Made by a program: the position numbers and the translations under genes. Positions 18,975 to 33,465 of a stretch of 34,656 nucleotides of DNA are shown here, piece by piece. Location: NCBI GenBank assembly GCA_021107835.1, contig JAIOSD010000048.1, positions 1 to 34,656 of the forward strand, written 5' to 3'. The notes under the pieces are model-generated. The model was not told the origin of the DNA and ran no database searches. It saw nothing but the letters and a program-made list of their open reading frames with translations. Numbering within the stretch: the stretch's first letter is position 1; every line of letters starts with the position of its first letter. This stretch comes from an archaeon. Lineage in GTDB: Archaea; Nanobdellota; Nanobdellia; SCGC-AAA011-G17; PNOQ01.

Positions 18975-19009
18975 AAAAATAAAGAAAAAAGAAGAGTTTA
19001 AATATTTTA

Positions 19010-19534
19010 TCAAACTAAACTCGCTTTAATAATTTTAACTTCTTCTAAAGGCCTATCTGAAGAATCTTTTTCAACTTTAGCAATTGCATCTACAACATCC
19101 ATCCCTTCAATAACAGTTCCAAAAACAGGATGCTTTCCATCTAAGAAATTATTATTTACTAAGTTAATAAAAAACTGACTTGAACCTGTATTGGGACCTG
19201 CATTTGCCATAGAGATAGTACCTCTATTGTTTTTAAGTTCTCCAAACTCATCTTGAATATTTGGAATACTAGGATCTCCCATCCCAGTACCAGTTGGATC
19301 TCCACCTTGTATCATAAACCCACTAATAACTCTATGAAAAATAACCCCCTCATAAGTCCCTTTTTCTACTAAACTTACAAAATTTCCTGTTGTAATAGGC
19401 ATATCCTCAGCCATTTCTATTTTAATATTTCCTTTATTTGTTTCAAGTAAAACCACTTGCTTATTTCCATTACCTACCATAAGTATAGCCCCCAATAATA
19501 AAACCAATATAATAATAATTATTTTAGTTTTCAT
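19010..19534 (-). CDS. cyclophilin-type peptidyl-prolyl cis-trans isomerase with N-terminal signal/anchor
   Basis: FHRVISGFMIQGGDPTGTGMG, NRGTISMANAGPNTGSSQFFI, HPVFGTV. The N-terminus is MKTKIIIIILVLLLGAILMV. Confidence 0.9.
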   Translation of the reverse strand: MKTKIIIIILVLLLGAILMVGNGNKQVVLLETNKGNIKIEMAEDMPITTGNFVSLVEKGTYEGVIFHRVISGFMIQGGDPTGTGMGDPSIPNIQDEFGELKNNRGTISMANAGPNTGSSQFFINLVNNNFLDGKHPVFGTVIEGMDVVDAIAKVEKDSSDRPLEEVKIIKASLV

Positions 19535-19570
19535 TTTAAATTTGAGATTAAAAGATATATATAAACTTAA

Positions 19571-20023
19571 CTATATCAAAATCAAAATAACACCAACTAA
19601 GAACAAGAAAAACAAAAAATAATCAATAATACTATTTCCTTTTAAAATCCCACTAAGTCTCGTTGTTAAAGGCCACAAAGGCCTTGTCCCTTTCTTAGTA
19701 AAACTATCTAAAAAGATGTGACTAAAATACCCAATAAGAACAGCTGCCCCATAAGTCTCTCCAAAAAGAACTACAAACAAAAGAAAAAAAGCAAAAGCTA
19801 ACAACAAACTATGTATTAAACCTCTATGCCCTAAAAAGAAATTAATCATCCAAGAAAAAGGTTTAGTTTTCTGTCCAATCTTACTTTTATGAAAATCAAT
19901 ATCTGGAAAAATAGCAAAGAAAGCACCAACTAAAACAAATAAAAATATATGTTCAACAGCAAAAGCTTTAGCAAAAAATATGCTAAGTAAAATACCAAAC
20001 ATTAAATGGGTTTTGAACATCAT
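19571..20023 (-). CDS. membrane-bound metal-dependent hydrolase (YdjM/DUF457-like)
   Basis: H..FG, PDIDF, RG.IHS and SHIFLDSFT motifs set in TM helices. Confidence 0.65.
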   Translation of the reverse strand: MMFKTHLMFGILLSIFFAKAFAVEHIFLFVLVGAFFAIFPDIDFHKSKIGQKTKPFSWMINFFLGHRGLIHSLLLAFAFFLLFVVLFGETYGAAVLIGYFSHIFLDSFTKKGTRPLWPLTTRLSGILKGNSIIDYFLFFLFLVGVILILI

Positions 20024-20118
20024 AAGACTAAAACTGGAAATACAAGTATATTAAAATAATTATGACGTAACATATAAGTGTATTTAAACAAGATTATCCC
20101 AATTAAGTAAGTAATAAA

Positions 20119-20280
20119 ATGGACAAAAAGGAAAGAAAAGAAGTTATCCAGATATGCCTAGAAGCAGAATTAATTTTAGAAAGACATTACGAAAAAGTTT
20201 GGGGAGAAGGAAATGAAGCAATCCAATACATTGAAGAAAAAATATATGGCATAAAATACGAAAATCAGACTGCTCTATAA
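20119..20280 (+). CDS. possible 53-aa ORF (absent from ORF track)
   Basis: My translation is MDKKERKEVIQICLEAELILERHYEKVWGEGNEAIQYIEEKIYGIKYENQTAL. It is the only plus-strand ORF within a 16-kb minus-strand block, and its coding status is uncertain. Confidence 0.3.
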   Translation: MDKKERKEVIQICLEAELILERHYEKVWGEGNEAIQYIEEKIYGIKYENQTAL

Positions 20281-20298
20281 AACTTCAATCATTTTAAC

Positions 20299-20907
20299 TT
20301 ATTTTATTAATCTTTTTATTTCATCAATATGTTTTTTACGATCCCCAATCTTAACTACTGGAAATCCATACTTTTTTGCCTCTCTTAAAATATATTTATT
20401 AAATTCTACCACCCATTCAATCTCTTTTTCTTTAACCGAATCAGGATACTTATCCGCATCACTCCATAAACCTCTTGTGAAAACAATTTCACGAATACGT
20501 TCAATATCATCTTCTAAAAGAAAAAGAATCTTAACTTCTTTACCAGGTATCGACAAATTCTTTATTAATTTAGGCAAAATGGCTACGCCTTCCACAATAA
20601 AGGATTTCCATACATAATCAGTCTCTATTAAAGCTTTAACCCCTTTCCAAACATCAACACTTTCATCATTCTGAAATTTTACAATTTGTTTAGCAGATCT
20701 TTTTGAAAGAAATTCAACCGCCATATCAGGAGTGGCGCCTTCAATATCAAACAATCTTGGAAAATCTTTTTTTCTAACAATTTTTCTCATCTGTAATCTA
20801 ATAGTATCCGTAGAAATCCAAGGCAACTTAAGCTCTTCTGCAATTTTTCTAGCAACATAACTTTTCCCTACAGTTGGAGCCCCCCCAATTAAAATTACTT
20901 TTTCCAT
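20299..20907 (-). CDS. P-loop kinase (2-phosphoglycerate kinase-like)
   Basis: Walker A ILIGGAPTVGKSYVA followed by ISTDTIR. Confidence 0.6.
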   Translation of the reverse strand: MEKVILIGGAPTVGKSYVARKIAEELKLPWISTDTIRLQMRKIVRKKDFPRLFDIEGATPDMAVEFLSKRSAKQIVKFQNDESVDVWKGVKALIETDYVWKSFIVEGVAILPKLIKNLSIPGKEVKILFLLEDDIERIREIVFTRGLWSDADKYPDSVKEKEIEWVVEFNKYILREAKKYGFPVVKIGDRKKHIDEIKRLIK

Positions 20908-20943: not shown

Positions 20944-21930
20944 CTAATCACAAATTTCAATCATCTTAGCAGGATCCAAAGCCTTAATATCAGAACTAGT
21001 AAACTCTAACCGATCAAACATAGTATTTTTAGTAACTCTACCACTAATACTTAATTGCTTACCAAGAACCTCCTTCTTAAATCCCTCAAATATCTCAGAA
21101 CTAGCCTCAGCTATTTTATCATTTTTACAACCAAGTAACTGCTCAGCTTGATTAGAAAAACACACAACGCGAATATTATTGCTACCATCGTCAAAGAAAA
21201 TATTCACAATAGAAGATTTTCTGGCACTAACAGCACCATGAGTCTTACAAGACCCATCAGGAAGAACTTTACGATTACACTCAGGACAAGCCAAATAATG
21301 TCTAGGTTCAAATAGTTGCACAACAGTGCCTTGTAACTCAGCAAACATACCCTCTTTTAACTCACAAATCTTACAAACTTCAGCACTAGGCCTTTCAAGC
21401 ACTTGATTCTGAACCTCACCAATTTTCTCACCTTTAGGATTTATTTCCATCTGAGCCTTATTACCCAAATGTAACTCATTATAACCATTATTAACTCTAG
21501 AATAAGCATTACGAACTTTCAAAATATCTCCTTCATTAAGATTTCCTTCTTCAATCTCAGATATCAACTTCTCATCCCACATAACAACACGAATAGTAGC
21601 AGTTTCATCTCCAATAACAATATTAGCAACCTTACCACTACGACCGTTCTTATTAAACTCTCTAACACCATACATTTGCAAAACCTTACCCACTGCATTA
21701 ACAGAACCAACACCCTTAGGAATTTCTTTAATCTTTAAGCGTTTACCAGTTAAATCTTCACTCATTTTAACACCTAACTGATTAGCAACTATTTGCGCAG
21801 CACCTTCTTTACTAATTAAATCAGATAACTGAGAAATTTTCTCATTGATTTTCTCATCCAAATCTTCTTTAGAAATCTCTTTCTCTTTCAGAATTTTTTC
21901 AACAATATCTTCGTATTTTAAACCAAACAT
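20944..21930 (-). CDS. replication protein A-like ssDNA-binding protein (OB folds + Zn ribbon)
   Basis: N-terminal LISKEGAAQIVANQLGV, OB fold VGKVLQMYGVREFNKNGRSGKVANIVIGDETATIRVVMWDE, and Zn ribbon YLACPECNRKV..DGSCKTHG. Confidence 0.75.
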   Translation of the reverse strand: MFGLKYEDIVEKILKEKEISKEDLDEKINEKISQLSDLISKEGAAQIVANQLGVKMSEDLTGKRLKIKEIPKGVGSVNAVGKVLQMYGVREFNKNGRSGKVANIVIGDETATIRVVMWDEKLISEIEEGNLNEGDILKVRNAYSRVNNGYNELHLGNKAQMEINPKGEKIGEVQNQVLERPSAEVCKICELKEGMFAELQGTVVQLFEPRHYLACPECNRKVLPDGSCKTHGAVSARKSSIVNIFFDDGSNNIRVVCFSNQAEQLLGCKNDKIAEASSEIFEGFKKEVLGKQLSISGRVTKNTMFDRLEFTSSDIKALDPAKMIEICD

Positions 21931-22679
21931 TGAAATGTATCTCCAACCAAAGGATTCAACTCCTTAAAGTCAACAGCCGCCTTCAGAACCACCTCTTTTT
22001 CCCCAAAGACGTCTGTTATACTATCGGAAACCATCTCTACTTTAAATAGATTATTGTTCTCCTCAAAATAGAATTTTGCATTATTATCCCAACATCCTTT
22101 ATCTGCCCCACAAAGATCTACCACACTTTTAAGTTCATCTACATTTTCTAAAAAAGAATTAAAATCATAATCATAAAAAACATTAATATTACCCATAGGC
22201 CTATGTTTTATCTCATAACCATCTCTATCAACAACATACTCTTCAACAGAATCTAAATCTACAACCATTCCACCTTTTTCAAAAATTAAATCAGTTTCAT
22301 ACCCTCCAAAGAAATCCATTCTAGCATTCAAAAGAGAAATAAAACTACTCTCTAAACTACCAATATTAGGATAACAATCTACATCGCCCCTAACAAAATA
22401 AACATATCCATCATCAGTACTATCCCCTTCAAAATTACCCCCAAAATTACCAAATTCAACAATCAAATCAGAAAAGCCTTGTTTCAAAACCTGTTTATCA
22501 TAAATCAAATCTTTTTCCCCATCAAAGGATAACTGAATAAGATCTAACTGCATCTCACCCACATATCCTTTTTGATTTTCCATAGCTTGAGTAAATAAAA
22601 CTAAAGATAAACCAAAGGATAAAACTACAAAAACTAAAACAAAGTGGACCAACATCTCTCCTTTTTTATTTAAAGACAT
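21918..22679 (-). CDS. pilus-locus protein 12, N-terminal NKKG motif + TM helix
   Basis: MSLNKKGEMLVHFVLVFVVLSFGLSLVLF..., 253 aa, Cys-containing ectodomain. It overlaps the upstream gene by 10 nt and the downstream RPA gene by 13 nt. Confidence 0.6.
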   Translation of the reverse strand: MSLNKKGEMLVHFVLVFVVLSFGLSLVLFTQAMENQKGYVGEMQLDLIQLSFDGEKDLIYDKQVLKQGFSDLIVEFGNFGGNFEGDSTDDGYVYFVRGDVDCYPNIGSLESSFISLLNARMDFFGGYETDLIFEKGGMVVDLDSVEEYVVDRDGYEIKHRPMGNINVFYDYDFNSFLENVDELKSVVDLCGADKGCWDNNAKFYFEENNNLFKVEMVSDSITDVFGEKEVVLKAAVDFKELNPLVGDTFQCLV

Positions 22680-23125
22680 TTTTCCACCCCTTTCTCTTCA
22701 TATTCAGAAATATCCAAACAAATTTGAATTAAATCATCTTTACCCGGATAAGGGATACAAATACTTTTACCATTGTTTCCAGAACCAAATTCTAAATTAC
22801 CAAGATCTAGATAATAACAATCCCCATAAACTGCACTAAAAAGATTATTAGTAACACTCACTAATTTATCTTCATAAGAAGAATCAACTAAAAAAAGATT
22901 AATTAAGTCAGAAACATCACCAACCTCAACAGGTGTATTCAAATAATTGTTCAATACAAAAATATTCTCTTTTGCATAGAGAGCCTCTTTAACAGCAATT
23001 TCTTCATCTTTATCTTTAGTAACACCAGGAATAATAAATACTAAAAAAATTAAAAGTAAAAAAGCAAACACTAAGAAAACTCCAAAAGCTTCTGCCAAAT
23101 CCAAACTTCCTCTTTTATTTAACAT
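22670..23125 (-). CDS. pilus-locus protein 11, NKRG motif + TM helix
   Basis: MLNKRGSLDLAEAFGVFLVFAFLLLIFLVFII..., 151 aa, with an 11-nt overlap upstream. Confidence 0.6.
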   Translation of the reverse strand: MLNKRGSLDLAEAFGVFLVFAFLLLIFLVFIIPGVTKDKDEEIAVKEALYAKENIFVLNNYLNTPVEVGDVSDLINLFLVDSSYEDKLVSVTNNLFSAVYGDCYYLDLGNLEFGSGNNGKSICIPYPGKDDLIQICLDISEYEEKGVEKCL

Positions 23126-23594
23126 CAGTCACCACCAAAATATCTAAAATCCCTTGTTTAATTTCTCCACCATCTTCTATCAAAACATATTTCCTAGTAG
23201 AAAAACAATCATAAAAACTCCCCTTCATACCACAAGTAACTTTCTGAGCAACCATCCATTTATTTATTTCAGAAACACCAATTTCAACACCATCTAAACC
23301 ACTTAACTTTAACTCAACACCAACCCTTTCATTATCAGGAACATCAAAACAATTTTCAAGATTTTCATCATAAAATTTTCCAATATTAATCACACCAGAA
23401 GAGCCTAAACAATCATCAGAAGAAAACAACCTATAAACCGCTATTTTCTGTTCAAGTTCACTAGTCTTAACTTCCCTATGAACACTTTGTGTAAAACTCA
23501 CACTAAAAGATAACGCAACAATAATTATAAAAAAAATATAAAAGATTTGTTTTACCTGAAGCTTTTGGAGAATGTATCCTTTTTTATTTACCAT
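23115..23594 (-). CDS. pilus-locus protein 10, NKKG motif + TM helix
   Basis: MVNKKGYILQKLQVKQIFYIFFIIIVALSFSVSF..., 159 aa, with a 7-nt overlap upstream. Confidence 0.6.
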   Translation of the reverse strand: MVNKKGYILQKLQVKQIFYIFFIIIVALSFSVSFTQSVHREVKTSELEQKIAVYRLFSSDDCLGSSGVINIGKFYDENLENCFDVPDNERVGVELKLSGLDGVEIGVSEINKWMVAQKVTCGMKGSFYDCFSTRKYVLIEDGGEIKQGILDILVVTDVK

Positions 23595-24064
23595 TTTCCA
23601 CTAACTCCTGCCCCACCAGACTTTCCCCCTCCCGGATAAAAGGCATCTCCAACAACCACACCCCTCACAAAAAATTTATCTTGAGTCTTTTCAAAAACCA
23701 ACTTAGAATAATCTCCCAAAGCCAAAGATACCGTTTCTATATTTGAATTAGCAACACAACTTATTCTATTTCCAGAGTAAATGGGGGTATCATCTAAAAC
23801 CACACTAAAGACACAAGGAGACTCAAAAGAACTATCAAACCGATGTTCATCAGAATTAATTTCATAAACCAAATCAACTTCCCCATCAAAACCCAAAATC
23901 AAATCAGCACCCAGTTTCAAATCATTAGCAATTAAGCGTTCTTCAAATCCAGTTCCATCTGCAACCTTTTCCATAAAAAACCACATACTAAGGAAAACTA
24001 CTACTACAATAAAACCATAAGCTGCCCCTAAAAAAAGCCGAGGATCATTAGAGCTATCTGACAT
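23588..24064 (-). CDS. pilus-locus protein 9, N-terminal TM anchor, Gly-rich C-terminus
   Basis: MSDSSNDPRLFLGAAYGFIVVVVFLSMWFF..., ending in ...YPGGGKSGGAGVSGKW. It lacks the NKKG motif. Confidence 0.55.
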   Translation of the reverse strand: MSDSSNDPRLFLGAAYGFIVVVVFLSMWFFMEKVADGTGFEERLIANDLKLGADLILGFDGEVDLVYEINSDEHRFDSSFESPCVFSVVLDDTPIYSGNRISCVANSNIETVSLALGDYSKLVFEKTQDKFFVRGVVVGDAFYPGGGKSGGAGVSGKW

Positions 24065-24088
24065 AGAATAATTCTAACATTTATTGTT

Positions 24089-24100
24089 TATATTACTTTT
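24089..24100. repeat. 12-nt direct repeat copy A (TATATTACTTTT)
   Basis: Identical to 24411..24422. It flanks the G+C-richer ORF 24118..24375. Confidence 0.8.
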
Positions 24101-24117
24101 GTAATGTTTATTTAGTG

Positions 24118-24375
24118 TTAATCTCTCTGGCTATCCAATACTTGAACCATCCCTTCAATTTCGCTTCGGGTAACATAAGATAACCCCGCACTAATTGGGA
24201 CTCCATTAAAATACTTAACCTCGTTAACGGAAAGCAATGAATCAGTTACCCGGTTAAACTGCCTAAGCCATGTTGTCCCACTTGTTTCCTTAACAAACCC
24301 CATCGCCTCTCCAATCTCACTTCCATGATAGAGAACTTCCTGCTCCTCGCCCAATAGTAGACAAATAGATCCCAT
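24118..24375 (-). CDS. compositionally foreign 85-codon ORF inside the pilus locus (coding status uncertain)
   Basis: About 43% G+C by my hand count (111/258), against clearly AT-richer neighbours. Only 2 Lys in 85 aa, with frequent GAG/GGG/CAG codons. No TM segment. A TATA-like TTATAAAT lies about 25-28 nt upstream of the ATG, which would give a leaderless-type transcript. It has ~50-nt gaps on both sides, unlike the overlapping neighbours. Confidence 0.4.
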   Translation of the reverse strand: MGSICLLLGEEQEVLYHGSEIGEAMGFVKETSGTTWLRQFNRVTDSLLSVNEVKYFNGVPISAGLSYVTRSEIEGMVQVLDSQRD

Positions 24376-24410
24376 AAAAAAAGAAATTTAAATATATTTA
24401 TAACTTTATC

Positions 24411-24422
24411 TATATTACTTTT
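24411..24422. repeat. 12-nt direct repeat copy B (TATATTACTTTT)
   Basis: Identical to 24089..24100. It abuts the stop codon of 24424..24903. Confidence 0.8.
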
Positions 24423-24423
24423 C

Positions 24424-24903
24424 CTATTCAGTTATACTCAATTTAGAGCCAACCCATTTAAGTTGTAAGGGAACATATTCTTTTTGTCCTATACTAACAA
24501 TCCCTGAATCCATATTAGTTGGAATAAACCCTTCAAAATCATATGTAGCAATAAACCTAGAATTCAAACAAGATTCAGGAGCACCATCATTTCTACAAAC
24601 TATTAAACAAGCTTTATTAAAACACTCAGGAGGACGTTCATATACTCCAGAACCTTCATTAGCCGCCTTATCAAAAGCAACCAACATTTGATCCTTATTC
24701 ATATAAATAAGATATGTAGTTTCCCCCCCCGTTTCTAGGTACAAAACAGTCCCATCAAGCATATCAAAAGACTCCCTTGTTCCAGCATCAAAATCACTAG
24801 AAAACATAGACCACAACACCTCACTCGCAGGAATTAAAATAAAAATAATAACAATCGCTCCCGCAATAATACCAATTAAAGCACTAGTAGTCATCTTACC
24901 CAT
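24424..24903 (-). CDS. pilus-locus protein 7, N-terminal TM anchor
   Basis: MGKMTTSALIGIIAGAIVIIFILIP..., 159 aa, Cys-containing. It contains a G8 run (plus-strand C8 at 24723..24730). Confidence 0.6.
   Translation of the reverse strand: MGKMTTSALIGIIAGAIVIIFILIPASEVLWSMFSSDFDAGTRESFDMLDGTVLYLETGGETTYLIYMNKDQMLVAFDKAANEGSGVYERPPECFNKACLIVCRNDGAPESCLNSRFIATYDFEGFIPTNMDSGIVSIGQKEYVPLQLKWVGSKLSITE
24723..24730. repeat. C8/G8 homopolymer inside a surface-protein gene
   Basis: Plus strand ttCCCCCCCCg. It encodes T-G-G-E (ACG GGG GGG GAA) on the minus strand and is the longest G/C run I noticed in the window. Confidence 0.7.
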
Positions 24904-25114
24904 TATTCATCACATCCGTAAGATTTGTAGGGGCAGCTTCACTAGCCAACCCTAAAAGTTGTTTTACAGCATCAAAAACAGTGTTAGACTGACTACTAAA
25001 AATAGCTATAATTACAAAAAGAACTATTATAAAAATAATAAGACCAATAATAGTCTGAATAGATAATCCCTGCCCTTTTTTACATTTCAAATAAAAAAAA
25101 AGAGAAGTTAGCAT
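24896..25114 (-). CDS. class III signal peptide (type IV pilin-like) protein, paralog of 25108..25452
   Basis: ...KCKKGQGLSIQTIIGLIIFIIVLFVIIAIF... The ATG at 25114 sits in the last codons of the upstream gene (caATGcTAA). The alternative TTG at 25090 would give MKCKKGQ... The track start at 25129 is a TTG. Confidence 0.6.
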   Translation of the reverse strand: MLTSLFFYLKCKKGQGLSIQTIIGLIIFIIVLFVIIAIFSSQSNTVFDAVKQLLGLASEAAPTNLTDVMNNG

Positions 25115-25452
25115 TGTATTGCTGAACAAGCGGCTGCAGGCATTTCAGTACAGTATAAAGTAACGTCTGCCTTTCGATCATTATCAAGATCTACTTCAAA
25201 TGAAGCATGACAATACCTATCTCTAAAATTCTCATCACCAGATACTTCATAAGCTTGACAATAACCATTACATTGCAAAACTGCCCCTTGAGTATCTATA
25301 GCACTAGATCCCCAAACCTTATTCCACCAGTCTGCAAATTGCCCAGTACCTCCAGTTAAAGCAACAACTAATATGACTAAAACAAAGATTGCAAGGATAG
25401 TAATGATAATAGTATTAACAGAAAGATTTTGTCCTTTTTTATTATCCATCAT
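25108..25452 (-). CDS. type IV pilin-like protein, major-pilin candidate (KKG|Q class III signal)
   Basis: MMDNKKGQNLSVNTIIITILAIFVLVILVVALTGG..., with 6 Cys in the C-terminal half. It is preceded by GAGGTGAT (25456..25463), the clearest Shine-Dalgarno match I found in this locus. The track start at 25455 is a TTG. Confidence 0.7.
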   Translation of the reverse strand: MMDNKKGQNLSVNTIIITILAIFVLVILVVALTGGTGQFADWWNKVWGSSAIDTQGAVLQCNGYCQAYEVSGDENFRDRYCHASFEVDLDNDRKADVTLYCTEMPAAACSAIQC

Positions 25453-25455
25453 CAA

Positions 25456-25463
25456 ATCACCTC
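25456..25463 (-). promoter_or_regulatory. Shine-Dalgarno GAGGTGAT upstream of pilin gene
   Basis: The plus strand reads atcacctc. The spacer TTG precedes the ATG at 25452. Confidence 0.55.
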
Positions 25464-25500
25464 TTTATTAATCTATAAAATGTTTATTTAAACTTTTTGG

Positions 25501-26103
25501 TTATCCACAAACAGGTTTAGTAGGAAAACCAGAATCCACTATACAAAAAGACCCTTTATCCCTTTTTAAGATTAAATTATTTCCATTAACTGGATAAGAA
25601 ATTTCCTCTCCAGAAAGAGATTCATAATTCATAAAGCTAGAAGAACCTATAACTATTGAAACTTTAGAATCCTTTGCAATCTTAGACAAGTCTTGTATAC
25701 CACCTAGCTCATCAACACTACAGGGTATTATTCCAGTAATAACTTTTTCAGAAACAATTCCCCCAAGATTATTCAACAATCTTACTTTAGTACGAGATCC
25801 ATCCAAAGAAAAAACCAATTCATATTGATTGGGAAAAGAAAAAGTATCAGAAGTATCACAAAAACATCCAACAGAAGTACTAGTCTTACAATCAATTAAA
25901 GAACTAATAAATCCGCTATCAAAATTATCTTTTGCTTCATCATCCCCTGGAGCTTCTAAACCAAGACTCCATCCAAAAAGACCATTTGCAAGGGCAGCAA
26001 AAGATTTGTCTTGAAAAGCAACTATCCCAAAAATAACCATCAAAACTAAAAAAGCAGGAAGAAGCCACCGCCCAATACCCCCTTTCTTATTTAAAGATTT
26101 CAT
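25501..26103 (-). CDS. pilus-locus protein 4, NKKG motif + TM helix
   Basis: MKSLNKKGGIGRWLLPAFLVLMVIFGIVAF..., 200 aa with several Cys. There is an ATGA overlap with the upstream mini-ORF. Confidence 0.6.
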   Translation of the reverse strand: MKSLNKKGGIGRWLLPAFLVLMVIFGIVAFQDKSFAALANGLFGWSLGLEAPGDDEAKDNFDSGFISSLIDCKTSTSVGCFCDTSDTFSFPNQYELVFSLDGSRTKVRLLNNLGGIVSEKVITGIIPCSVDELGGIQDLSKIAKDSKVSIVIGSSSFMNYESLSGEEISYPVNGNNLILKRDKGSFCIVDSGFPTKPVCG

Positions 26104-26252
26104 CCACCAAACCTCAAAACATTTTTTATTGTATCCAACAACTCAACTAACTGCTCTTTTTGTTTAAAAATTATCAATAAAACTGCAATTAATAAAATTA
26201 AAATTATTAACCACGTACCTAGTTTATTCCAAACTATTTCTCCTTTTTTCAT
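26100..26252 (-). CDS. 50-aa mini-protein with KKG motif + TM helix (absent from ORF track)
   Basis: My translation is MKKGEIVWNKLGTWLIILILLIAVLLIIFKQKEQLVELLDTIKNVLRFGG. It has ATGA overlaps at both ends. Confidence 0.5.
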   Translation of the reverse strand: MKKGEIVWNKLGTWLIILILLIAVLLIIFKQKEQLVELLDTIKNVLRFGG

Positions 26253-27100
26253 TGATGACAAGCCCCCGCAACTTCTTCAGCACTACCAACATAAAGATAA
26301 GAAACATAATCTGTTTTCCTAGCAAGAGTTTCTGCAAAAACATCTATAATTAGTCCGCCTGCACACCCAATAACTCCTCCAACGGCAGTTCCAGCAACAG
26401 GAAGAACAACAGAACCAATCGCACCACCAATATACGCACCACCAACACAACTTCCAACACCTAAAACAATTTCTGTAGTATCTGGAGTTTCCCAAAAGTT
26501 TTTCCAAAGATCTGCCCTCTTATCTGCAAAAAAGACAACATAAAGAGAATCATTCAAATCAACACTAGAATCAGTAGAATAGCCCATATAACCAGAGCTA
26601 TCAACTTTGTAAAAATATTCATAAAAAGTTCTCTTAGATCCTAAAGGAATTCTCTCAGTAGCCAAAAAATCATTAAAGTCACTTAAAGGAATATTATTAA
26701 TCTCTTTTTTTATATCCTCTGAAAAATCTATCCTAGAACAAACAAAACACCAATTGTCCCCTTTCCATAAATCCCAATCAGGCATAAAATCCTTTTCTCC
26801 CTCAGCAAATTGATACCAACAATCATACATTTCTCCTGCAATAGTTTCATAAATTTCATCTTCATCTTTAGAATCTATTTCAACCAAATTAGTCTCACAA
26901 TCAAAATCCATTCCAAAAGGGGAATTTCCAAGTATTTTAGTTTGAGCCCGTAACAACACACTATTTCTACAAGCTTCTCTATCTAAAGAATCACTTCCAA
27001 GATTAGCAAATGCACCAGTAACCCATAATAAAACAACCCCAGAAATAAGAACTATTAACAATCCAACGATAGTCCACATAGTCATTCCTTTCTTATCCAA
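26249..27100 (-). CDS. pilus-locus protein 2: DKKG motif + TM helix, ectodomain, C-terminal glycine-zipper hydrophobic region
   Basis: With the TTG at 27100 the protein begins (M)DKKGMTMWTIVGLLIVLISGVVLLWV... The C-terminus is GVGSCVGGAYIGGAIGSVVLPVAGTAVGGVIGCAGGLII. The start is uncertain: GTG at 27127, TTG at 27100 or ATG at 27085. Confidence 0.6.
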   Translation of the reverse strand: MDKKGMTMWTIVGLLIVLISGVVLLWVTGAFANLGSDSLDREACRNSVLLRAQTKILGNSPFGMDFDCETNLVEIDSKDEDEIYETIAGEMYDCWYQFAEGEKDFMPDWDLWKGDNWCFVCSRIDFSEDIKKEINNIPLSDFNDFLATERIPLGSKRTFYEYFYKVDSSGYMGYSTDSSVDLNDSLYVVFFADKRADLWKNFWETPDTTEIVLGVGSCVGGAYIGGAIGSVVLPVAGTAVGGVIGCAGGLIIDVFAETLARKTDYVSYLYVGSAEEVAGACHQ

Positions 27101-27203
27101 GAAAACCAAGCCCCCCAGTAACAGCACTATAAAAAAGATAGATAGTTACAATTATTAAAACTAAAACAATAATCTCAGTAAGGGTCATACTACCACCTTT
27201 CAT
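27093..27203 (-). CDS. 36-aa mini-pilin-like peptide (absent from ORF track)
   Basis: My translation is MKGGSMTLTEIIVLVLIIVTIYLFYSAVTGGLGFLG. It is the first ORF after the platform gene. The alternative start at the second ATG (27188) is preceded by AGGTGG. Confidence 0.4.
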   Translation of the reverse strand: MKGGSMTLTEIIVLVLIIVTIYLFYSAVTGGLGFLG

Positions 27204-27220
27204 ACAATTAAAATAAATTA

Positions 27221-27234
27221 AAATATATATAAAG
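27221..27234 (-). promoter_or_regulatory. TATA-like box (CTTTATATATATTT) upstream of the pilin gene string
   Basis: It lies 18-31 nt upstream of the ATG at 27203, in the only non-overlapping gap (40 nt) after the platform gene. Confidence 0.35.
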
Positions 27235-27243
27235 ATTTCCTTA

Positions 27244-29388
27244 TCAAATCATATTGGAACTAGTTGTCAAAACCTGCGAAGCAATATAATTGAACAACAA
27301 AATACCAATCAAAGCAATCGCTAGATATATTAGAGTCCCCTTCAGAATATTCTTTCCTGCACTATTTTGCTCATTTAATTTATCCACTCCAAACTCAATA
27401 CCATTCACCAACACACTTAAAATATATATTATCTGGATTACATAAACCCCTACAACAACCTGAAACCAATATCCTGGAATAGCATCTGTTTTAGAAAACA
27501 TATCAGCTACAGTACTTACATCAAAACCAGCAGAAACATCTCCTGCATTTACTTGATCTAACAAATTACTCAACTTAGAAATCACCCCTACAATCATACT
27601 AGAAATACCTACAACAATGCCAGAAATAACAGGAGCCATAAATTTAATCTGGCTCTGCATACTAGAGATAATTTCAGCTAATAAATCTTTTAACCTTTCA
27701 TTAACTTTGTGAACATTACCCACATATTGAGAAATACTAGTTAAAGATTGTGCCACGATCTTTGGACCTTTTCTAGAACTTTCTAATAAAACTTCCATAG
27801 AACTCTGAACTAAAGGGCTCGGATAATCTAAATAAGCACCATTTTCAGGATTAAAAATAGCCTCTTTTAAACTCATCCCCCCTTTAACCAAATTCAAATG
27901 AACTTTTCCAAAAAATTTCCCTGCAGGAGTACCACTCATCGTTTTAGCAACATCTTTAAATGCTAATTCAGAAGGGATTCCATCCCCAATACGAGTCCCA
28001 AGTTGGAATAATGCAGTAGCAAACTCACTCTCTAATCTTTTAGTTTCTTTTCTAAGTTTCATAGCTTTTTTAGTTTTAGAGTTAAAATACATCCAAAGTG
28101 AAATAGCAAACCCAAGCGGAATAAATAAACCAATTAACAAAGCACCCAAACCAAAAGGCCCAACACAACCAGAATTATTACATTCAAAGTCTAAAAACTT
28201 TTCGCCACCAGATCCATCAGAATTTGACCAAAAAGTAATATCAAAACCAGGATTTATTTCATGAAGAATAAATGGGCTAGCCCCTATAATCAAAAAGAAT
28301 AAGGAGATTATAATTGCAGTAAAAGCCACCCCTTTCTTAGACTTAAAGGGCACTTTAACTTGTCCATAACTTCCAGGACGTTTGTTTAAAATATTAACTC
28401 CAACACTATAAACAAGTAAAGGCAACAAAACATTATATAATATAGCTAAGTGATACCACTTAACAGAACCCAAAAACACCCCAATTAAAGGAAACATAAC
28501 CAACCCTAAAATAGGTAAGATTACACCAAGCATGTGCAACATAGTAATAGGATTTTTCAAATCATGTGCATAATGCAACATCTTTTCATAAATTCCATCC
28601 AAAATAGTTTTTAGAGATTTATCTAATAATTCTGTTCTTCTTCCTTCACTGGGTTCATACAAACTACTTTCAATAAGGTGAAAAGAATTAACAAATTCTA
28701 AATTATGCTCCCTCCACTTACCAAGATAACTCTCTAAAGATTCTTTTAATGTTGAATATTTGCTAGTCTGAACATCCCAAAAAATCTTTCTCAAATCCAA
28801 AGACAAAGAACCACTTAAATGATCAGAAGCGAACTTAATAGCATTCTCTAAGTTAGAAGTATGCCTCATATAAATAACAATGTAAAGAATACAAAGCACC
28901 ATTTGATTGCTTGCATCTAATCTCCACCTACCAGCAATATAATTCGGCAATCTAGTCAAAGGACCAATAAGCAACACAGAAACCAAAATCAAAAGAAGAG
29001 CTACAAAAACTATCCCAAACCTATCTGTAAGAAAATAAGAAACCCCTCCAATAACCAAACCAATCAAAACCAATAAAGTAGAAACCAAAATGGCAAAGCT
29101 GGCAGCGCCAACAGGAGTTATAGCTAAATGAGAAATATCAATACTTTTTTCTATTTTTTCAATATCTTTATCAGAAGGATTTACTTTCACAATACTTTCA
29201 GAAAAATTACATAACTTCTCATATCTAGTAAACCCCTTACCAAGTGCTTCTTCTCTAAATTTGGAATATTCTTTAGAAAACTCTGGATCCGGTTGATATT
29301 CTTCAACTTCATCCAAAGTAACTCTTTTATCCAGTTTTGCTTTGTATTTGTTTAAGATATCTTGGATTTCTTTATTAGATATAGGCAT
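27244..29388 (-). CDS. FlaJ/TadC/PilC-like polytopic platform protein (T2SS F-type)
   Basis: 714 aa with many TM helices and two soluble helical blocks (for example KRLESEFATALFQLGTRIGDGIPSELAFKDVAKTM). Its ATG directly follows the ATPase stop. Confidence 0.7.
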   Translation of the reverse strand: MPISNKEIQDILNKYKAKLDKRVTLDEVEEYQPDPEFSKEYSKFREEALGKGFTRYEKLCNFSESIVKVNPSDKDIEKIEKSIDISHLAITPVGAASFAILVSTLLVLIGLVIGGVSYFLTDRFGIVFVALLLILVSVLLIGPLTRLPNYIAGRWRLDASNQMVLCILYIVIYMRHTSNLENAIKFASDHLSGSLSLDLRKIFWDVQTSKYSTLKESLESYLGKWREHNLEFVNSFHLIESSLYEPSEGRRTELLDKSLKTILDGIYEKMLHYAHDLKNPITMLHMLGVILPILGLVMFPLIGVFLGSVKWYHLAILYNVLLPLLVYSVGVNILNKRPGSYGQVKVPFKSKKGVAFTAIIISLFFLIIGASPFILHEINPGFDITFWSNSDGSGGEKFLDFECNNSGCVGPFGLGALLIGLFIPLGFAISLWMYFNSKTKKAMKLRKETKRLESEFATALFQLGTRIGDGIPSELAFKDVAKTMSGTPAGKFFGKVHLNLVKGGMSLKEAIFNPENGAYLDYPSPLVQSSMEVLLESSRKGPKIVAQSLTSISQYVGNVHKVNERLKDLLAEIISSMQSQIKFMAPVISGIVVGISSMIVGVISKLSNLLDQVNAGDVSAGFDVSTVADMFSKTDAIPGYWFQVVVGVYVIQIIYILSVLVNGIEFGVDKLNEQNSAGKNILKGTLIYLAIALIGILLFNYIASQVLTTSSNMI

Positions 29389-31677
29389 CTATACACTCCT
29401 TTTAATTTCTTTTTTCAACCAATCTTTCCATCTAAATAAGATTTTTTTATTATCTAGTTCTCCCGTTTTACTAAGCACCTCATCAGAGATTTTATGAAAA
29501 GCATCATTTGAAGCAAGTACAAAAGAAGCTTCTAATAAATCTTTTCTTTTAAGTTCATTAGCATTTTTAACTAACTCTTCTTTTATCTCCTTTCTAACCA
29601 TAATATTTTCCCAAACAGCATCCCAATTCCCAGCCCATTCTTTTACATTTCCAGCTATTTGTTTTATAACTTCAGAATCACCATTTAACAAATTATCTGT
29701 AGGTTCCAACAAATCAGTCTCAGGATTATAAACCATTAAATCAACAACCCCCCCTTCACGCAAAGGATCTTCTTCCCATTCCTTCCTTACTTCAGTAATA
29801 CTTAAAACTCTTCTAACACTCTTCAAACCATCTGGTGTTTTTATTGGATTAGCAACAACAATTATATCAGTCGCCTTAAAACTAGTTCTCGGAACTCCTA
29901 AATCATTAACCACCCTATCAAAAACAGAATAAGGGCTTCCACCATGAATAGTACCTGCAACAACATTTGCTAAAGCACCAATCCTCATTGCCTCATAAAG
30001 AGCCAAAGCTTGTTTACTTCTAACCTCTCCAACAATCAAACTACTATCGCCCAACCTCAAACTAGCCCTTATCCCTTCCTCTGCAGCTAATTCAGTCCCA
30101 CCTTCAGATAAAGCAGATCTAACTTTCAAAGGTTGTATATTGTATCCTAAATGTCTTAATGACCTAACTGGTAATTCTAAAGTGTCTTCAACCGTAATTA
30201 ATCTGTATTTTCTCATAATCTCAACCATACAAGAGCCAAGCAAAGAAGTTTTCCCACTACTTCTAGTACCTGCAACCAACATCGTTCTTCCCCCATCAAT
30301 TAAAAAACTCAAAAGGGCAGCACCAAGTGAGCTTATCATTTTATTATCAATAAATAAAGGCAAGGTCCAAGGTTTGTCTCTATGTCTCCTGAATGCATAT
30401 CCCAATCCAACAGGATTTAAAGGACTAGAAATAATTGCAACTCTTGCTCTTGCACCAGGAATTACTAACTCAGTGTCTAAAATAGGATTTGCTTCATCTA
30501 AAGGTCTTCCAGAAATCATTCTAAATTTAGTTGCCCAACCTTCACCATCTGCTTTACTGGGAATAATATTAGTTGAACATTCTCCATAATCTTGATGTAC
30601 AATATAAATAGGTGCCTCCCCAATAGGACCATTAACAACAATATCTTGTATCTTATCATCTCTTAATAAAACTTCTAACAACCCAAATCCAACAGTATAT
30701 CTAACCAAAATAGCAGCCAATTTTTTTATTTCCTCAAAAGAAATATTCATTTGCTGTCGCTCAGCCAACTCACTAATTAAATCTCTTCCAATATTAAAAA
30801 AAGTTTCCCTCATTCTTTCAGGATCAGTAAATTCTTCAGCAACAGGTTCGTGTTCAGAAAGAACAGATTTAGCAAGATCCAACAAACTTAATTTATCCTC
30901 ACTAAGTCCAAATTCAGGAGGGGTAATGTGATACCTGTTCTTTATATCATCATCCACTTGAAAAATCATAACACCAATATCTTCTCCAACAAGATAACTA
31001 TCTATTTCATTTGCATTAATGGGTGGTTCAGCCATTAACCGAGTATGTATAAAATTTGGAGTTATAATGGGTCTGAAAAAATTAGTATAGAGAGTTCTTT
31101 CCCCAATAGCATAACCATCTAAATCAGATTTAGCAAGTAAAATTAACTTTGTTTTTTCTAATAATTCAAGCATTTCCTCCAACGTCTTCAAATAAACATT
31201 TACTTGGGTTACATCTTCTGACAATTTTCCACTTTTAAGTTTTATTTTTTCTTCTCGCACCAGCCTTTTAAGCTCAACATAAGCTCCAAGAGGATCTGTT
31301 CTAAGTAAATTTGTAACAACATACTGTATATTAGCAAACCGCTTAGAAACCGCAGTAGATAAATAAGGATCTGCCCCAACAGAATACAAACTTAAAATCC
31401 TTTTTTGTTTAGTTAAAAAAATATAAATATTCGCAATCTCCCTTAACATTGCAGTCTGTTCACTATCATATTGATAGTTTCTATCAAAAGATAGTACAAT
31501 CCGATTAACACCTGGACTCTCAATTAATTTATCAATAATACTTGCCATACAAATACCATTATCTTCAATAGAAGGTGGATAAGATAGTCCAAAAAAATTA
31601 ACCCTCATTATATGCTCTTCGCCTTCTTCTACTAGCTCATACTCTCCAGGTTTCAATTTTTTTTGAGAAATTGTCAT
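29389..31677 (-). CDS. type II/IV secretion family ATPase (FlaI/VirB11/GspE superfamily), extended form
   Basis: Motifs: IQDIVVNGP, Walker A VAGTRSSGKTS (about 30247..30270), ITVEDTLEL, Walker B LIVGEVR, His box VAGTIHGG. The ATG at 31677 is preceded by GGGGAGTGGTGAT. An alternative ATG at 31701 would give 770 aa. Confidence 0.85.
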   Translation of the reverse strand: MTISQKKLKPGEYELVEEGEEHIMRVNFFGLSYPPSIEDNGICMASIIDKLIESPGVNRIVLSFDRNYQYDSEQTAMLREIANIYIFLTKQKRILSLYSVGADPYLSTAVSKRFANIQYVVTNLLRTDPLGAYVELKRLVREEKIKLKSGKLSEDVTQVNVYLKTLEEMLELLEKTKLILLAKSDLDGYAIGERTLYTNFFRPIITPNFIHTRLMAEPPINANEIDSYLVGEDIGVMIFQVDDDIKNRYHITPPEFGLSEDKLSLLDLAKSVLSEHEPVAEEFTDPERMRETFFNIGRDLISELAERQQMNISFEEIKKLAAILVRYTVGFGLLEVLLRDDKIQDIVVNGPIGEAPIYIVHQDYGECSTNIIPSKADGEGWATKFRMISGRPLDEANPILDTELVIPGARARVAIISSPLNPVGLGYAFRRHRDKPWTLPLFIDNKMISSLGAALLSFLIDGGRTMLVAGTRSSGKTSLLGSCMVEIMRKYRLITVEDTLELPVRSLRHLGYNIQPLKVRSALSEGGTELAAEEGIRASLRLGDSSLIVGEVRSKQALALYEAMRIGALANVVAGTIHGGSPYSVFDRVVNDLGVPRTSFKATDIIVVANPIKTPDGLKSVRRVLSITEVRKEWEEDPLREGGVVDLMVYNPETDLLEPTDNLLNGDSEVIKQIAGNVKEWAGNWDAVWENIMVRKEIKEELVKNANELKRKDLLEASFVLASNDAFHKISDEVLSKTGELDNKKILFRWKDWLKKEIKRSV

Positions 31678-31763
31678 ATCACCACTCCCCTTTAACAACA
31701 TAAAGTTTATTATAGTATCTAATAAAAGCTATATTAATCTGATTAAATAGTTTTCGTTTTAAA

Positions 31764-32153
31764 ATGAATCCAACACAACAAATACAGGCGCAATACAGCC
31801 CAATGAATGAAATAAATACTCGTGTAAGAATTCTAGAAGGAAAATATAACCTAACAAGAGAGCGTATGTTACTTATAAATCAAAATATGATAGATCACTA
31901 CAAAACACTAAGTACAGAGCTAAGAACAATAAATGAAGACCTGAAAGAAATAAAAGAAACACTAGAAACAATGAAAGAAACAACAAAAAATGTTGTAAAG
32001 GAAATGTCTTTTTTCGCAAGAAAAGACCAATTAAAAATTTTAGAAAAATATATTAACATGTGGAATCCATTAAACTTCGTAACTGAAAAAGAAGTCTTAG
32101 AAATTATGAAAAAAAAGAGGACAAAAAATGCAACTAAACGAAAAAGAAAATAG
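31764..32153 (+). CDS. coiled-coil protein with basic tail (FlaC-like?)
   Basis: 129 aa with heptad-like stretches (LSTELRTINEDLKEIKETLETMKETTKNVVKEM), then INMWNPLNF, and a C-terminal KKKRTKNATKRKRK. It is divergent from the ATPase gene. Confidence 0.55.
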   Translation: MNPTQQIQAQYSPMNEINTRVRILEGKYNLTRERMLLINQNMIDHYKTLSTELRTINEDLKEIKETLETMKETTKNVVKEMSFFARKDQLKILEKYINMWNPLNFVTEKEVLEIMKKKRTKNATKRKRK

Positions 32154-32748
32154 AGATTCCCCTATACAAAGAGTTTTAGATCTCAAAAGAGGCGGAAGAA
32201 CAAATCAAGACATTCCAAACACCCTAAGAAAAGAAAATTTTGGAAATCAGGAAATATCAAGTGCATTAGACCAAGCAACTGTAAAAGGAGAAATTAATCC
32301 AGATGAAGTGCCTTCTCCAGCACAAGCTACCCAAGAAATCCCAAAACAAGAATATTCTCCTCAACAAGAAGCCCCTTTACAATCAAATATACCGACGTTT
32401 GCTCCAGAACCAGCTGGAAGAGCAAACTACGAAATGGTAGAACAAATAGCAGAATCAGTAGTTTCAGAAAAATGGGAAGACATGGTTAAAAACGTTGGCG
32501 ATTTAAGGTTATGGAAAGAAAAAGTAGAAACAGATTTATCTGGCGTAAAACAAGAAATATTAAGAACACAATCTAGATTTGAAAATTTGCAAAAAGCTGT
32601 GCTAGGTAAAGTAACAGAATATAGTGCTGGAATAACTGACTTAAACGCAGAAATGAAAGCAATGGAAAAAGTATTTGAAAAAATTCTAGAACCTCTAACA
32701 AGAAGTGTTAAAGACTTGGAAAAAGTAACTCAAAAGATAAAAAAATAA
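32128..32748 (+). CDS. protein with small helical N-domain, Pro/Gln-rich linker and C-terminal coiled coil
   Basis: IQRVLDLKRGGRTNQDIPNTLRKENFGNQEISSALDQA, then a P/Q-rich linker, then LRLWKEKVETDLSGVKQEILRTQSRFENLQKAV... It overlaps the upstream gene by 26 nt. Confidence 0.55.
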   Translation: MQLNEKENRDSPIQRVLDLKRGGRTNQDIPNTLRKENFGNQEISSALDQATVKGEINPDEVPSPAQATQEIPKQEYSPQQEAPLQSNIPTFAPEPAGRANYEMVEQIAESVVSEKWEDMVKNVGDLRLWKEKVETDLSGVKQEILRTQSRFENLQKAVLGKVTEYSAGITDLNAEMKAMEKVFEKILEPLTRSVKDLEKVTQKIKK

Positions 32749-32820: not shown

Positions 32821-33465
32821 TTATAGTTTTTCCATAAAGAAATAGTTTCCAATATGTTCTTTTTTTCCAGCAACCATAGTAATCAATTTAGCTTCAATTA
32901 TACGAAAATACGACTCAAATAATTCTTTCATCTCATCAAAAGATGAATAATATAATTTTGTTCCAGCAGGCATTTTTGCACCTTCAGGAATTATCCTTAA
33001 ATCTTTACCCTTCGCTCCAAAATCAGGATTTTGATTATTGAAACAAATTGATAAATATTTTCCTTTTTTATTCAAAATCCTTTTAATATTCTCTAAATAT
33101 TTATTTCTTTGTTCAGGTATTATATGGTGCAAAATTGCCCACTCGAATACAAAATCAAATTTATCATTTATTATATCTAAATCATCAACATCAAGAGCCA
33201 TAAATTTGATTTTTACACCCTGTTTCGTGGCATTTTCTTTTGCTAGTTTAATGGCATTTTCTGAAATATCTATACCTGTAACATCAAAACCTTTTGAAGC
33301 CAAATAAATCGCATAGAAACCTTCGCCACATCCAACATCAAGAACATTACATGGTTTAATCTCTCCACTTTCAACTAAGTCCCTTAATTCTTTAGGTGGT
33401 CCAAATTCTGTCCAGACGGCTACTCCTTCATATATTTTTTCAAACATTTCTTTATCATTGCTCAT
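32821..33465 (-). CDS. class I SAM-dependent methyltransferase
   Basis: Motif I VLDVGCGEGFYAIYLASKGFDVTGIDIS, plus FDFVFEWAILHH. Confidence 0.8.
   Translation of the reverse strand: MSNDKEMFEKIYEGVAVWTEFGPPKELRDLVESGEIKPCNVLDVGCGEGFYAIYLASKGFDVTGIDISENAIKLAKENATKQGVKIKFMALDVDDLDIINDKFDFVFEWAILHHIIPEQRNKYLENIKRILNKKGKYLSICFNNQNPDFGAKGKDLRIIPEGAKMPAGTKLYYSSFDEMKELFESYFRIIEAKLITMVAGKKEHIGNYFFMEKL

Follow-up and report, generated by a model that had tools for sequence, protein, structure and literature searches.

A probable type IV filament biogenesis operon with a conserved array of class III-type small proteins in Woesearchaeota and related DPANN archaea

We analysed the 34,656-nt contig JAIOSD010000048.1 (assembly GCA_021107835.1; this whole stretch is hereafter "the window"), which derives from a woesearchaeotal member of the DPANN archaea, and identified on its minus strand a tight gene array (21918..31701) that consists, in order, of a secretion-superfamily ATPase, a predicted platform protein, a short spacer and a run of small open reading frames (ORFs). 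We estimate at about 0.8 the probability that this locus is an operon for the biogenesis of a type IV filament (TFF), that is, of an archaeal pilus, in a member of the Woesearchaeales/Nanoarchaeia. The assignment to the TFF superfamily is based on an ATPase of the hexameric secretion type in which all four characteristic motifs are present, an adjoining platform protein of the T2SSF family that was recognized by remote homology, with no direct match, predicted class III signal peptides, at the level of the cleavage motif, in 10 of the 11 conserved families of small proteins, and an A24 prepilin peptidase with both catalytic Asp residues.

A preliminary description of the window, made from the letters of the sequence, had proposed an expanded type IV pilus-like locus. 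Its ORF coordinates and strand, the start of the ATPase at 31677, the platform ATG that abuts the ATPase stop codon (29388/29389), and the AT-rich gap of 40 nt with a TATA-like box all agree with our analysis. The same description suggested a small-genome, host-dependent archaeon. The relatives of the window are all Woesearchaeota/Nanoarchaeia, including complete genomes of 737-829 kb; the small genome is thus supported, and the source archaeon is probably host-dependent.

Results

ATPase and platform protein

The translation of the ATPase contains the sequences VAGTRSSGKTS, ITVEDTLEL, LIVGEVR and GTIHG, in which Walker A, Asp box, Walker B and His box are readable, and matches Pfam T2SSE at 3.7e-13, above the gathering score, which bears out the earlier placement of this protein in the FlaI/VirB11/GspE superfamily. 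In NCBIfam, FlaI (7.7e-38, 130 bits, compared with an equivalog cut-off of 550 bits) and TadA (4e-32) were matched, both far under their equivalog cut-offs, and the match to BasE, the bindosome ATPase, was far weaker (1e-17). The PDB matches, namely A. fulgidus GspE2 (2oap, 1.5e-28), CpaF (8rkd, 1.3e-21) and FlaI (1.7e-19), cover approximately residues 220-640 and delineate a FlaI/GspE2/CpaF-like core at ~230-640; the flanking extensions, of which the N-terminal one is ~220 aa long and the C-terminal one ~130 aa, had no match. Archaeal TFF ATPases typically carry subsystem-specific extensions (10.64898/2026.04.22.720090). Although the longest ORF begins further upstream (Table 1), a Shine-Dalgarno-like site, GGTGAT, precedes the ATG at 31677 and the N-termini of the orthologues read MAISQKK, so that this ATG is the likely start codon.

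The adjoining 714-aa protein had no match in Pfam, NCBIfam or PDB at the sequence level, and a profile of 23 platform sequences likewise retrieved nothing from PDB. However, T2SSF was matched in 5 of the 23 orthologues (best E-value 2.3e-5) and in 7 of 10 distant members of the family, in both halves of the protein and in one case above the gathering score. An Aenigmarchaeota protein that aligns with the window protein over 668 residues (29% identity, E = 6e-92) bears the NCBI name 'type II secretion system F family protein'. The AlphaFold 2 (AF2) model, with a predicted local distance difference test score (pLDDT) of 78.6, was matched by Foldseek to the cytoplasmic domains of EpsF (3c1q, 2vma, 2vmb), OutF (5nbg) and PilC (2whn) with probabilities of 0.99-1.0, target-normalised TM-scores of 0.70-0.77 and root-mean-square deviations of 2.6-3.0 Å. 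Two cytoplasmic domains, both divergent members of the T2SSF type, lie at residues ~150-245 and ~450-540, a small beta insert at ~380-413 is extracellular, and a hydropathy scan indicates ~9 transmembrane (TM) segments; FlaJ also has ~9 TM segments. From the remote homology and the match of the predicted structure, with no direct sequence match, we conclude that it is a divergent T2SSF platform. Thus, the FlaJ/TadC-like identity that had been proposed holds at the level of remote homology and modelled structure, whereas Pfam T2SSF does not match the window protein, an outcome that the preliminary description had listed among those that would refute its proposal.

Spacer and putative internal promoter

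The spacer between the platform gene and the first small ORF contains CTTTATATATA, ~25 nt ahead of the s1 ATG. A TTTATAWA box recurs in many related loci, 5-11 nt past the platform stop codon and ~25 nt before the ATG of the first small ORF. A crude regular expression retrieved it in 47 of 82 loci, but because these genomes are AT-rich, it is the conserved position of the box and not this count that bears the argument. The spacer is therefore a probable internal archaeal promoter, from which a leaderless or near-leaderless transcript of the small-ORF array would be produced.

The small-protein array

Twelve small ORFs follow the spacer (36-292 aa as listed), and with the likely start codons 8 of the 11 junctions between them are overlaps of 4-13 nt. 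The preliminary description counted twelve ORFs, almost all overlapping; most of the overlaps stand, but the conserved set numbers 11 because the 85-aa ORF at 24118..24375 has no homologue in the relatives. We considered this ORF as a twelfth component and rejected it: 84 related loci contain no homologue, and tblastn (E <= 1) retrieved nothing from L001-L004. Between s7 and s9 lie 359 nt in the window (24065..24423) compared with 22-28 nt in L001, L003 and L004, and the 85-aa ORF is probably not a gene of the system but a window-specific insertion or non-coding DNA. For the 24065..24423 stretch, which has no Rfam match, an insertion, a decayed gene and a small RNA are candidate origins.

A short charged segment followed by one hydrophobic helix forms the N-terminus of 11 of the 12 small ORFs, as had been noted. 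In 10 of the 11 conserved families, a K-[KR]-[GA] motif is located just before the helix in most orthologues, and KKG or KRG account for 250 of the ~274 sites. A crude filter for class III signals accepts nine of the 11 ORFs in the array, compared with ~1 of 32 genes elsewhere in the window (Fisher p = 9e-7). Gln at position +1 is dominant in s5 and s6, as it is in euryarchaeal EppA-type pilins. The orthologues of the 11 small ORFs are encoded in the same order in related loci. Accordingly, two of the checks that had been suggested, on class III signals and on conservation of synteny, came out in favour of the array: judged by sequence motif, the small proteins appear to be of the class III rather than the Sec type, and their gene order is conserved across genomes.

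Three of the proteins, s1, s3 and s6, are helix-only, with predicted mature lengths of 31-55 residues. The eight larger ones all contain an even number of Cys residues (2-8), mostly conserved, which points to extracellular disulfides and agrees with the Cys-bearing ectodomains described earlier. Sequence change is much more rapid in the small proteins than in the core (identity to the best database match is 46% for s2 and 81% for the platform), which fits surface exposure.

The motif is present in 4 of 5 orthologues of s1, such as MNKKGEIKEYLETIFIILFIIL, in 32 of 37 orthologues of s3, and in 22 of 28 orthologues of s10, of which 9 have Gln at +1. The largest protein, s2 (motif in 46 of 49), has BLAST matches in 50 of 84 related loci and 45 database homologues, every one of them named hypothetical. 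Its head contains six conserved Cys residues, and the AF2 model (pLDDT 67) consists of an N-terminal helix at 3-56 (54 residues) and an alpha/beta head with a beta sheet, a predicted fold that fits the pilin 'lollipop' plan of a helix with a globular head.

In the s5 alignment, K-2, six Cys and D89 are invariant and G-1 is present in at least 90% of the sequences; the six invariant Cys fall in a head of only ~55 residues. The N-terminus of s6 is paralogous to that of s5 (50% identity), with the common pattern KKG/Q-x-LS-x-x-T-I-I, and the architecture of s6 resembles that of Flp and EpdE. The window copy of s7 begins with MGKMTTSALIG and its orthologues with MNKKA.

We also attempted to place s5 in a known pilin family, and this was rejected given that all matches are below threshold (Arch_flagellin at 0.016 in one member, Flp1_like at 0.11, and EF-hand-type loops); a sub-threshold match to PDB 8fk7, 'Flagellin' (0.27), was not counted toward family membership. 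Separately, residues ~85-97 of s5 form a conserved DxDxDG(K)xD loop flanked by invariant Cys, with weak EF-hand, thrombospondin-3 and dockerin-type matches in several orthologues. This loop may be a Ca2+-binding site in a candidate shaft pilin.

Prepilin peptidase

The peptidase encoded ~7 kb from the array had been proposed as the cognate processing enzyme, and its identity is well supported (PF01478 at 7e-17): it contains the motifs IDIK...IPN and GGGD with both catalytic Asp residues and is the only A24 peptidase in the window. Its position is syntenic in relatives, ~10 kb downstream of the platform gene and on the opposite strand in L001, L003, L007, L008 and L010-L012. We presume that it processes the ten class III precursors.

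Beside the peptidase gene and divergent from it, four consecutive genes on the minus strand (9077..13656) encode secreted or membrane proteins with no family matches, two of them with lipobox-like N-termini (…ISGC), the others being N-terminally anchored proteins of 380 aa and 510 aa. Their products may be surface proteins.

Table 1. Features of the locus and its surroundings (positions in the window; a slash marks the predicted cleavage site; "motif" gives the number of orthologues with K-[KR]-[GA], and "Q+1" those with Gln after the site)
Feature	Coordinates	Strand	Basis or remark
ATPase, longest ORF, 770 aa	29389..31701	-	ORF list
Secretion-superfamily ATPase, 762 aa from ATG at 31677	29389..31677	-	T2SSE, FlaI, TadA and PDB matches
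Predicted platform protein, 714 aa, ~9 TM	27244..29388	-	Remote homology and AlphaFold/Foldseek
AT-rich 40-nt spacer with TATA-like box	27204..27243	-	Sequence; box recurs in relatives
s1, 36 aa, helix-only, class III-type, MKGG/SMTLTEIIVLVLIIV...	27093..27203	-	First gene past the putative internal promoter
s2, 283 aa, TTG start, DKKG/MTMW...	26249..27100	-	Class III-like N-terminus, alpha/beta head
s3, 50-53 aa, helix-only, class III-type, MKKG/EIVWNKLGTWLIILILL...	26100..26261	-	BLAST matches in 38 loci
s4, 200 aa, pilin-like, NKKG/GIGRWLL..., 6 Cys	25501..26103	-	Motif 6/10
s5, ~113 aa, predicted pilin, NKKG/QNLSVNTIIITIL..., Q at +1	25108..25455	-	Motif 42/42; Q+1 in 29
s6, predicted helix-only pilin, KKG/QGLSIQTIIGLIIFIIVL..., ~55 aa mature	24896..25114	-	Motif 26/27; Q+1 in 17
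s7, 159 aa, pilin-like, 4 conserved Cys	24424..24903	-	Motif 10/14
85-aa ORF with no hydrophobic helix	24118..24375	-	Not conserved
s9, 158 aa, N-terminal hydrophobic helix, 2 invariant Cys	23588..24064	-	Motif only 2/14
s10, 159 aa, pilin-like, NKKG/YILQKLQ..., 4 Cys	23115..23594	-	BLAST matches in 29 loci
s11, 151 aa, pilin-like, NKRG/SLDLAEAF..., 4 Cys	22670..23125	-	Motif 7/8
s12, 253 aa, pilin-like, NKKG/EMLVHFVLVF..., 4 Cys	21918..22679	-	Motif 17/18; last gene of the array
u1, 129 aa, soluble, alpha-helical, coiled-coil-like	31764..32153	+	Divergent from the ATPase
u2, 206 aa, soluble, C-terminal half coiled-coil-like	32128..32748	+	Overlaps u1, co-oriented
Two paralogues of ~170 aa, ~4 TM, motif FLLPFLLIF..FAILEKT.IFG	33604..34116, 34122..34622	-	Also in L001, 4710..6645
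A24 (FlaK/PibD-type) prepilin peptidase	14159..15022	+	PF01478 7.2e-17, NCBIfam FlaK 8e-17

Neighbouring genes and distribution

The divergent pair u1/u2 lies next to the ATPase gene in 61 of 62 loci and is part of the conserved core. Identity of u1 to its counterparts is 72% in L001 and 46% in L002; it has only weak matches to coiled-coil families in Pfam and reaches only E = 0.07 with FlaC_arch. Past this pair, the 4-TM paralogues are found in 47-50 of 51 loci, mostly in three copies and after a gene for a PRC-barrel protein. They match no known family and may belong to the machine as a component that has escaped recognition. In the interval that separates the 4-TM genes from the coiled-coil pair, the window also encodes an S-adenosylmethionine-dependent methyltransferase (32821..33465, minus strand; Methyltransf_25, 3e-24) that is not present at that position in L001-L004, which indicates a local insertion into conserved synteny.

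On the other side of the array, in the window as well as in L001, L003 and L004, there is a 13-nt overlap between the s12 stop codon and the start of an RPA gene (20944..21930 in the window, minus strand). An RPA gene comes next after the array in 34 of 45 loci, and RadA is encoded ~4 kb beyond it (16833..17822, minus strand). This adjacency possibly reflects co-transcription with the small-protein array, or only synteny in a compact genome.

The platform family has 3330 word-sharing homologues and 1297 clusters at 50% identity. The ATPase-platform core, in which the two genes adjoin in nearly all loci, is present in at least 587 species-level genomes, nearly all labelled Woesearchaeota, Nanoarchaeota or Nanoarchaeia and including the complete genomes CP010426 (AR20, 829 kb) and CP066683 (737 kb). 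A few genomes with the core are labelled 'Methanosarcinales', which we take to be a mislabel.

The G+C content along the window is 25-36%, and the GC skew is strongly negative throughout, which fits the location of nearly all genes of the window on the minus strand. Searches of the whole window for tRNAs and Rfam families returned zero matches. Among the housekeeping genes in the window are those for a tRNA splicing endonuclease, a tRNase Z-like protein, GINS51, aIF2-alpha, RadA, thymidine kinase, EF-1-beta, cyclophilin and RPA.

Discussion

Comparison with known systems

Conserved pilus loci have already been reported for these lineages. Across cluster-2 DPANN, including Woesearchaeota, Hamm et al. 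2024 (PMC11291902) described a pair of conserved type IV pilus loci that encode CpaF, TadC and coiled-coil proteins, and some products of such loci were found by proteomics in Ca. Nanohaloarchaeum antarcticus. The emphasis of that work is on Nanohaloarchaeota and the coiled-coil proteins, and by the legend of its Fig. 4, filament genes (FlaF, PilA) are annotated in only one locus. The locus analysed here resembles those loci, as they are presented there, in its lineage range and in the ATPase and platform genes next to coiled-coil genes, and the reach of the platform family into Aenigmarchaeota is consistent with their cluster-2-wide spread. Judging by gene content and lineage, u1/u2 probably correspond to the coiled-coil proteins of that report, which include NAR1_03220 and NAR1_01690 of Ca. 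Nanohaloarchaeum antarcticus. The accessible parts of the report do not describe an eleven-gene array, ten class III families, an internal promoter or coupling to RPA. With conserved pilus loci of this kind already on record, the novelty is lower than in the preliminary description, which had presented an uncharacterised machine.

An architectural parallel is the Epd pilus of Methanococcus maripaludis, or TFF system 1 (clade 1 of Makarova 2016, PMC4858521), a system reported in some DPANN (Sivabalasarma and Albers 2026). Both have a long operon with many pilin-like genes, K-K-G/Q-type cleavage sites (here in s5 and s6), and, in Epd, a helix-only major pilin with no globular head accompanied by several minor pilins. 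The same division is seen here between s1, s3 and s6, which are helix-only, and seven larger class III proteins, a resemblance of architecture only and not of sequence. However, Epd/system 1 clusters carry two platform genes and the EpdA peptidase, whereas the locus described here has one 714-aa platform gene and a peptidase gene 7 kb away on the other strand; furthermore, no coiled-coil pair is described for Epd. The number of distinct subunits, which had been called unusually large, is high but not unprecedented, given the 11 genes of the Epd cluster and the minor pilins of bacterial type IVa pili (T4aP).

A coiled-coil component is also described for the type IV pilus systems of halobacterial subclade 4F (Makarova 2016), which specifically include the intracellular protein arCOG07564. 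The CetZ2, CBS or SMC genes and the arCOG02945 adhesin that co-localise with 4F were not seen here. Makarova 2016 also mentions that nanoarchaea have an ATPase clade associated with coiled-coil proteins, for which pilins 'could not be identified', a remark that fits a DPANN system with pilins that escape annotation.

The archaellum shares with the locus the best NCBIfam match of the ATPase (FlaI), one FlaJ-like platform protein that has ~9 TM segments and two T2SSF domains, and a FlaK-type A24 peptidase. However, the ATPase is ~250 aa longer than FlaI and scores far below the FlaI cut-off. No archaellin (PF01917), FlaH, FlaF/G or FlaC/D/E/X match was found in the array or among the other scanned ORFs of the window, in which the sole KaiC-like match is RadA (Rad51, 2e-88). 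We therefore rule out an archaellum operon, as did the preliminary description. Finally, a CpaF-like ATPase, short Flp-like helix-only subunits and a multi-member set of minor pilins, presumed to prime assembly, recall the bacterial Tad/Flp and T4aP systems. The predicted cleavage sites, however, are archaeal class III sites (K-K-G) and lack both the Flp G/XXXXEY motif and a conserved E5, there is no secretin, TadZ, or separate TadB and TadC, and the archaeal cell has a single membrane.

Proposed machine

In the filament that we propose, the A24 peptidase would cut each precursor after the G or A of the K-[KR]-[GA] motif. The hexameric ATPase would dock on the cytoplasmic T2SSF domains of the platform and drive processed subunits out of the membrane and into a helical fibre, in which the N-terminal helices would hold the subunits together. 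Candidates for the shaft are the helix-only s1, s3 and s6 along with the small s5, with its three predicted disulfides, and s2, s4, s7, s10, s11 and s12 could be minor pilins, which would prime assembly and act as adhesins at the tip. The s9 protein would be an uncleaved membrane part of the machine, and u1/u2 might assist or regulate the ATPase-platform core from the cytoplasm. The most likely function, by analogy with other DPANN and candidate phyla radiation (CPR) symbionts, would be adhesion to a host cell or surface. Of the attachment or uptake fibre proposed earlier, the type IV filament is thus supported, whereas the function is still drawn from analogy.

Several observations weigh against a pilus operon as we picture it. 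None of the small proteins has a significant match to pilin or archaellin families in Pfam, NCBIfam or profile searches, and they are therefore pilin-like by signal and architecture only. The s2 head has no meaningful match in PDB, either by profile search or by Foldseek of the model. In addition, all s2 homologues carry within the head, near the C-terminus (~205-255), an uncharged Gly/Ala-rich hydrophobic segment of 30-55 residues with GxxxG-like spacing, which is modelled at pLDDT <50. Such a segment is atypical of pilins and could either serve as an additional membrane anchor or insert into a membrane. The K-[KR]-[GA] motif is absent from 12 of 14 orthologues of s9, which is probably an uncleaved, membrane-anchored accessory protein. 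Given the extra segment of s2 and the missing motif of s9, not all 11 proteins need be fibre subunits.

The gene content of other lineages and the platform itself add to these points. In nine loci of distant Woesearchaeota (L041, L050, L064, L067, L070, L071, L073, L075 and L083), neither the array nor RPA follows the platform gene. Most of these loci keep the ATPase and the coiled-coil pair, and in L083, which we inspected (12214..20500), unrelated genes follow. The array is therefore not an obligatory neighbour of the core, and in such lineages the pilin genes must lie elsewhere or carry a different motif. An hhalign comparison of the N- and C-terminal halves of the platform detected no internal repeat (probability 0.2), which says little because the diversity of the alignment is low (an effective number of sequences, Neff, of only 1.8). 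The adhesive function is purely an analogy with other symbionts, and to our knowledge no Woesearchaeota have been cultured.

Alternative readings

The same machine could serve mainly for uptake, as a short retractile or piston-like pseudopilus that takes up host or environmental DNA or nucleotides, as in bacterial competence (Com) pili or type II secretion systems (T2SS). The 13-nt overlap of s12 with the gene for RPA, a single-stranded DNA-binding protein, together with published proposals, makes DNA or nutrient uptake a live rival, albeit one that we consider unlikely. Roles in attachment or DNA import have been suggested for DPANN pili on several occasions (PMC7414124, PMC9563170), with pilus-mediated DNA import put forward for Undinarchaeota and Nanohaloarchaeota. 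The recurrence of RPA after the array and the RadA gene 4 kb further on point in the same direction. The many minor pilin-like proteins and very short helix-only subunits also recall the pseudopilus sets of Com and T2SS. However, window scans did not find a ComEC-like channel, ComEA or DprA, and the single ATPase is not accompanied by a retraction ATPase. Furthermore, RPA, YdjM, cyclophilin and RadA are housekeeping genes, adjacency and short overlaps are common in compact genomes that conserve gene order, and in L002 a 55-nt gap replaces the overlap before RPA.

Alternatively, the class III proteins might form a surface assembly instead of a fibre, installed by the ATPase and platform and remaining anchored at the membrane, similar to the Sulfolobus bindosome or other 'functionalised' TFF systems. 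The second hydrophobic segment of s2, the lack of a cleavage motif in s9 and head domains with no pilin-family matches would all fit such an assembly, and Sivabalasarma and Albers 2026 (10.64898/2026.04.22.720090) argue that many archaeal TFF machines are functionalised by non-pilin class III proteins. Nevertheless, no small protein matches a substrate-binding or enzyme family, the ATPase is far closer to FlaI and TadA than to BasE, and three helix-only proteins of 31-55 residues are understandable only as subunits that pack into a filament, so that we judge this arrangement quite improbable.

Hardly credible, finally, is the idea that the small ORFs encode ordinary Sec-dependent or bitopic membrane proteins with a pilin look produced by AT-rich, Lys-rich sequence: Lys-rich N-termini are indeed common in AT-rich genomes and there is no pilin-family match, but the exact position of the K-[KR]-[GA] motif is kept among orthologues of 26-73% identity in dozens of genomes, the motif is nearly absent from the other genes of the window (p = 9e-7), the gene order is conserved, and a dedicated A24 peptidase is syntenic.

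A broader possibility, to which we assign a low likelihood as a joint claim, is that the filament machine is a host-contact and uptake device and not an adhesion pilus alone. Under that proposal, the universally linked components, namely u1/u2, the three 4-TM paralogues and the PRC-barrel protein, would define a distinct TFF subtype; s2, the most conserved 'pilin', would insert its glycine-zipper-like segment into the host membrane; and host DNA would be imported, which would account for the translational coupling between array and RPA and for the nearby RadA gene.

Significance

We conclude that the type IV filament locus of these archaea is a divergent variant of a known machine type, not a new kind of machine. 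Through Makarova 2016 and Hamm et al. 2024, the system is known in outline. Nevertheless, its recognition in DPANN genomes has been uneven. The archaeal TFF classification of Sivabalasarma and Albers 2026 (10.64898/2026.04.22.720090) leaves Woesearchaeota unmentioned, and other surveys recorded ATPase and platform genes but no pilins (Makarova 2016; PMC9563170). In the preprint of He et al. 2020, type IV pilus components were stated to be 'missing in DPANN genomes', and pili were used to class imaged cells as CPR bacteria. Pilus parts were missed in such surveys because the platform escapes the Pfam T2SSF model and the pilin-like genes match no family. Metagenome-assembled genomes (MAGs) named NC_groundwater_..._Ag_... 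(L017, L059, L061, L066, L068, L079 and L083) carry the ATPase-platform locus, and their isolate names match the Ag groundwater samples of that preprint.

What is new here is the set of predicted pilins with its cleavage motif, the putative internal promoter, the reason why the platform is missed, and the conserved, unexplained partners of the core. Since the machine type is well known, the advance is incremental and not conceptual. If the host-contact and uptake proposal were true, the system would be the DPANN archaeal counterpart of bacterial competence pili. Much of archaeal diversity belongs to DPANN, and the way in which these archaea hold and feed on their hosts is largely obscure. For this question, the ten class III families, encoded by previously unannotated genes, provide a candidate parts list with cleavage motif, Cys pattern and gene order that can be used in annotation, metaproteome searches, the interpretation of cryo-electron tomography and heterologous expression.

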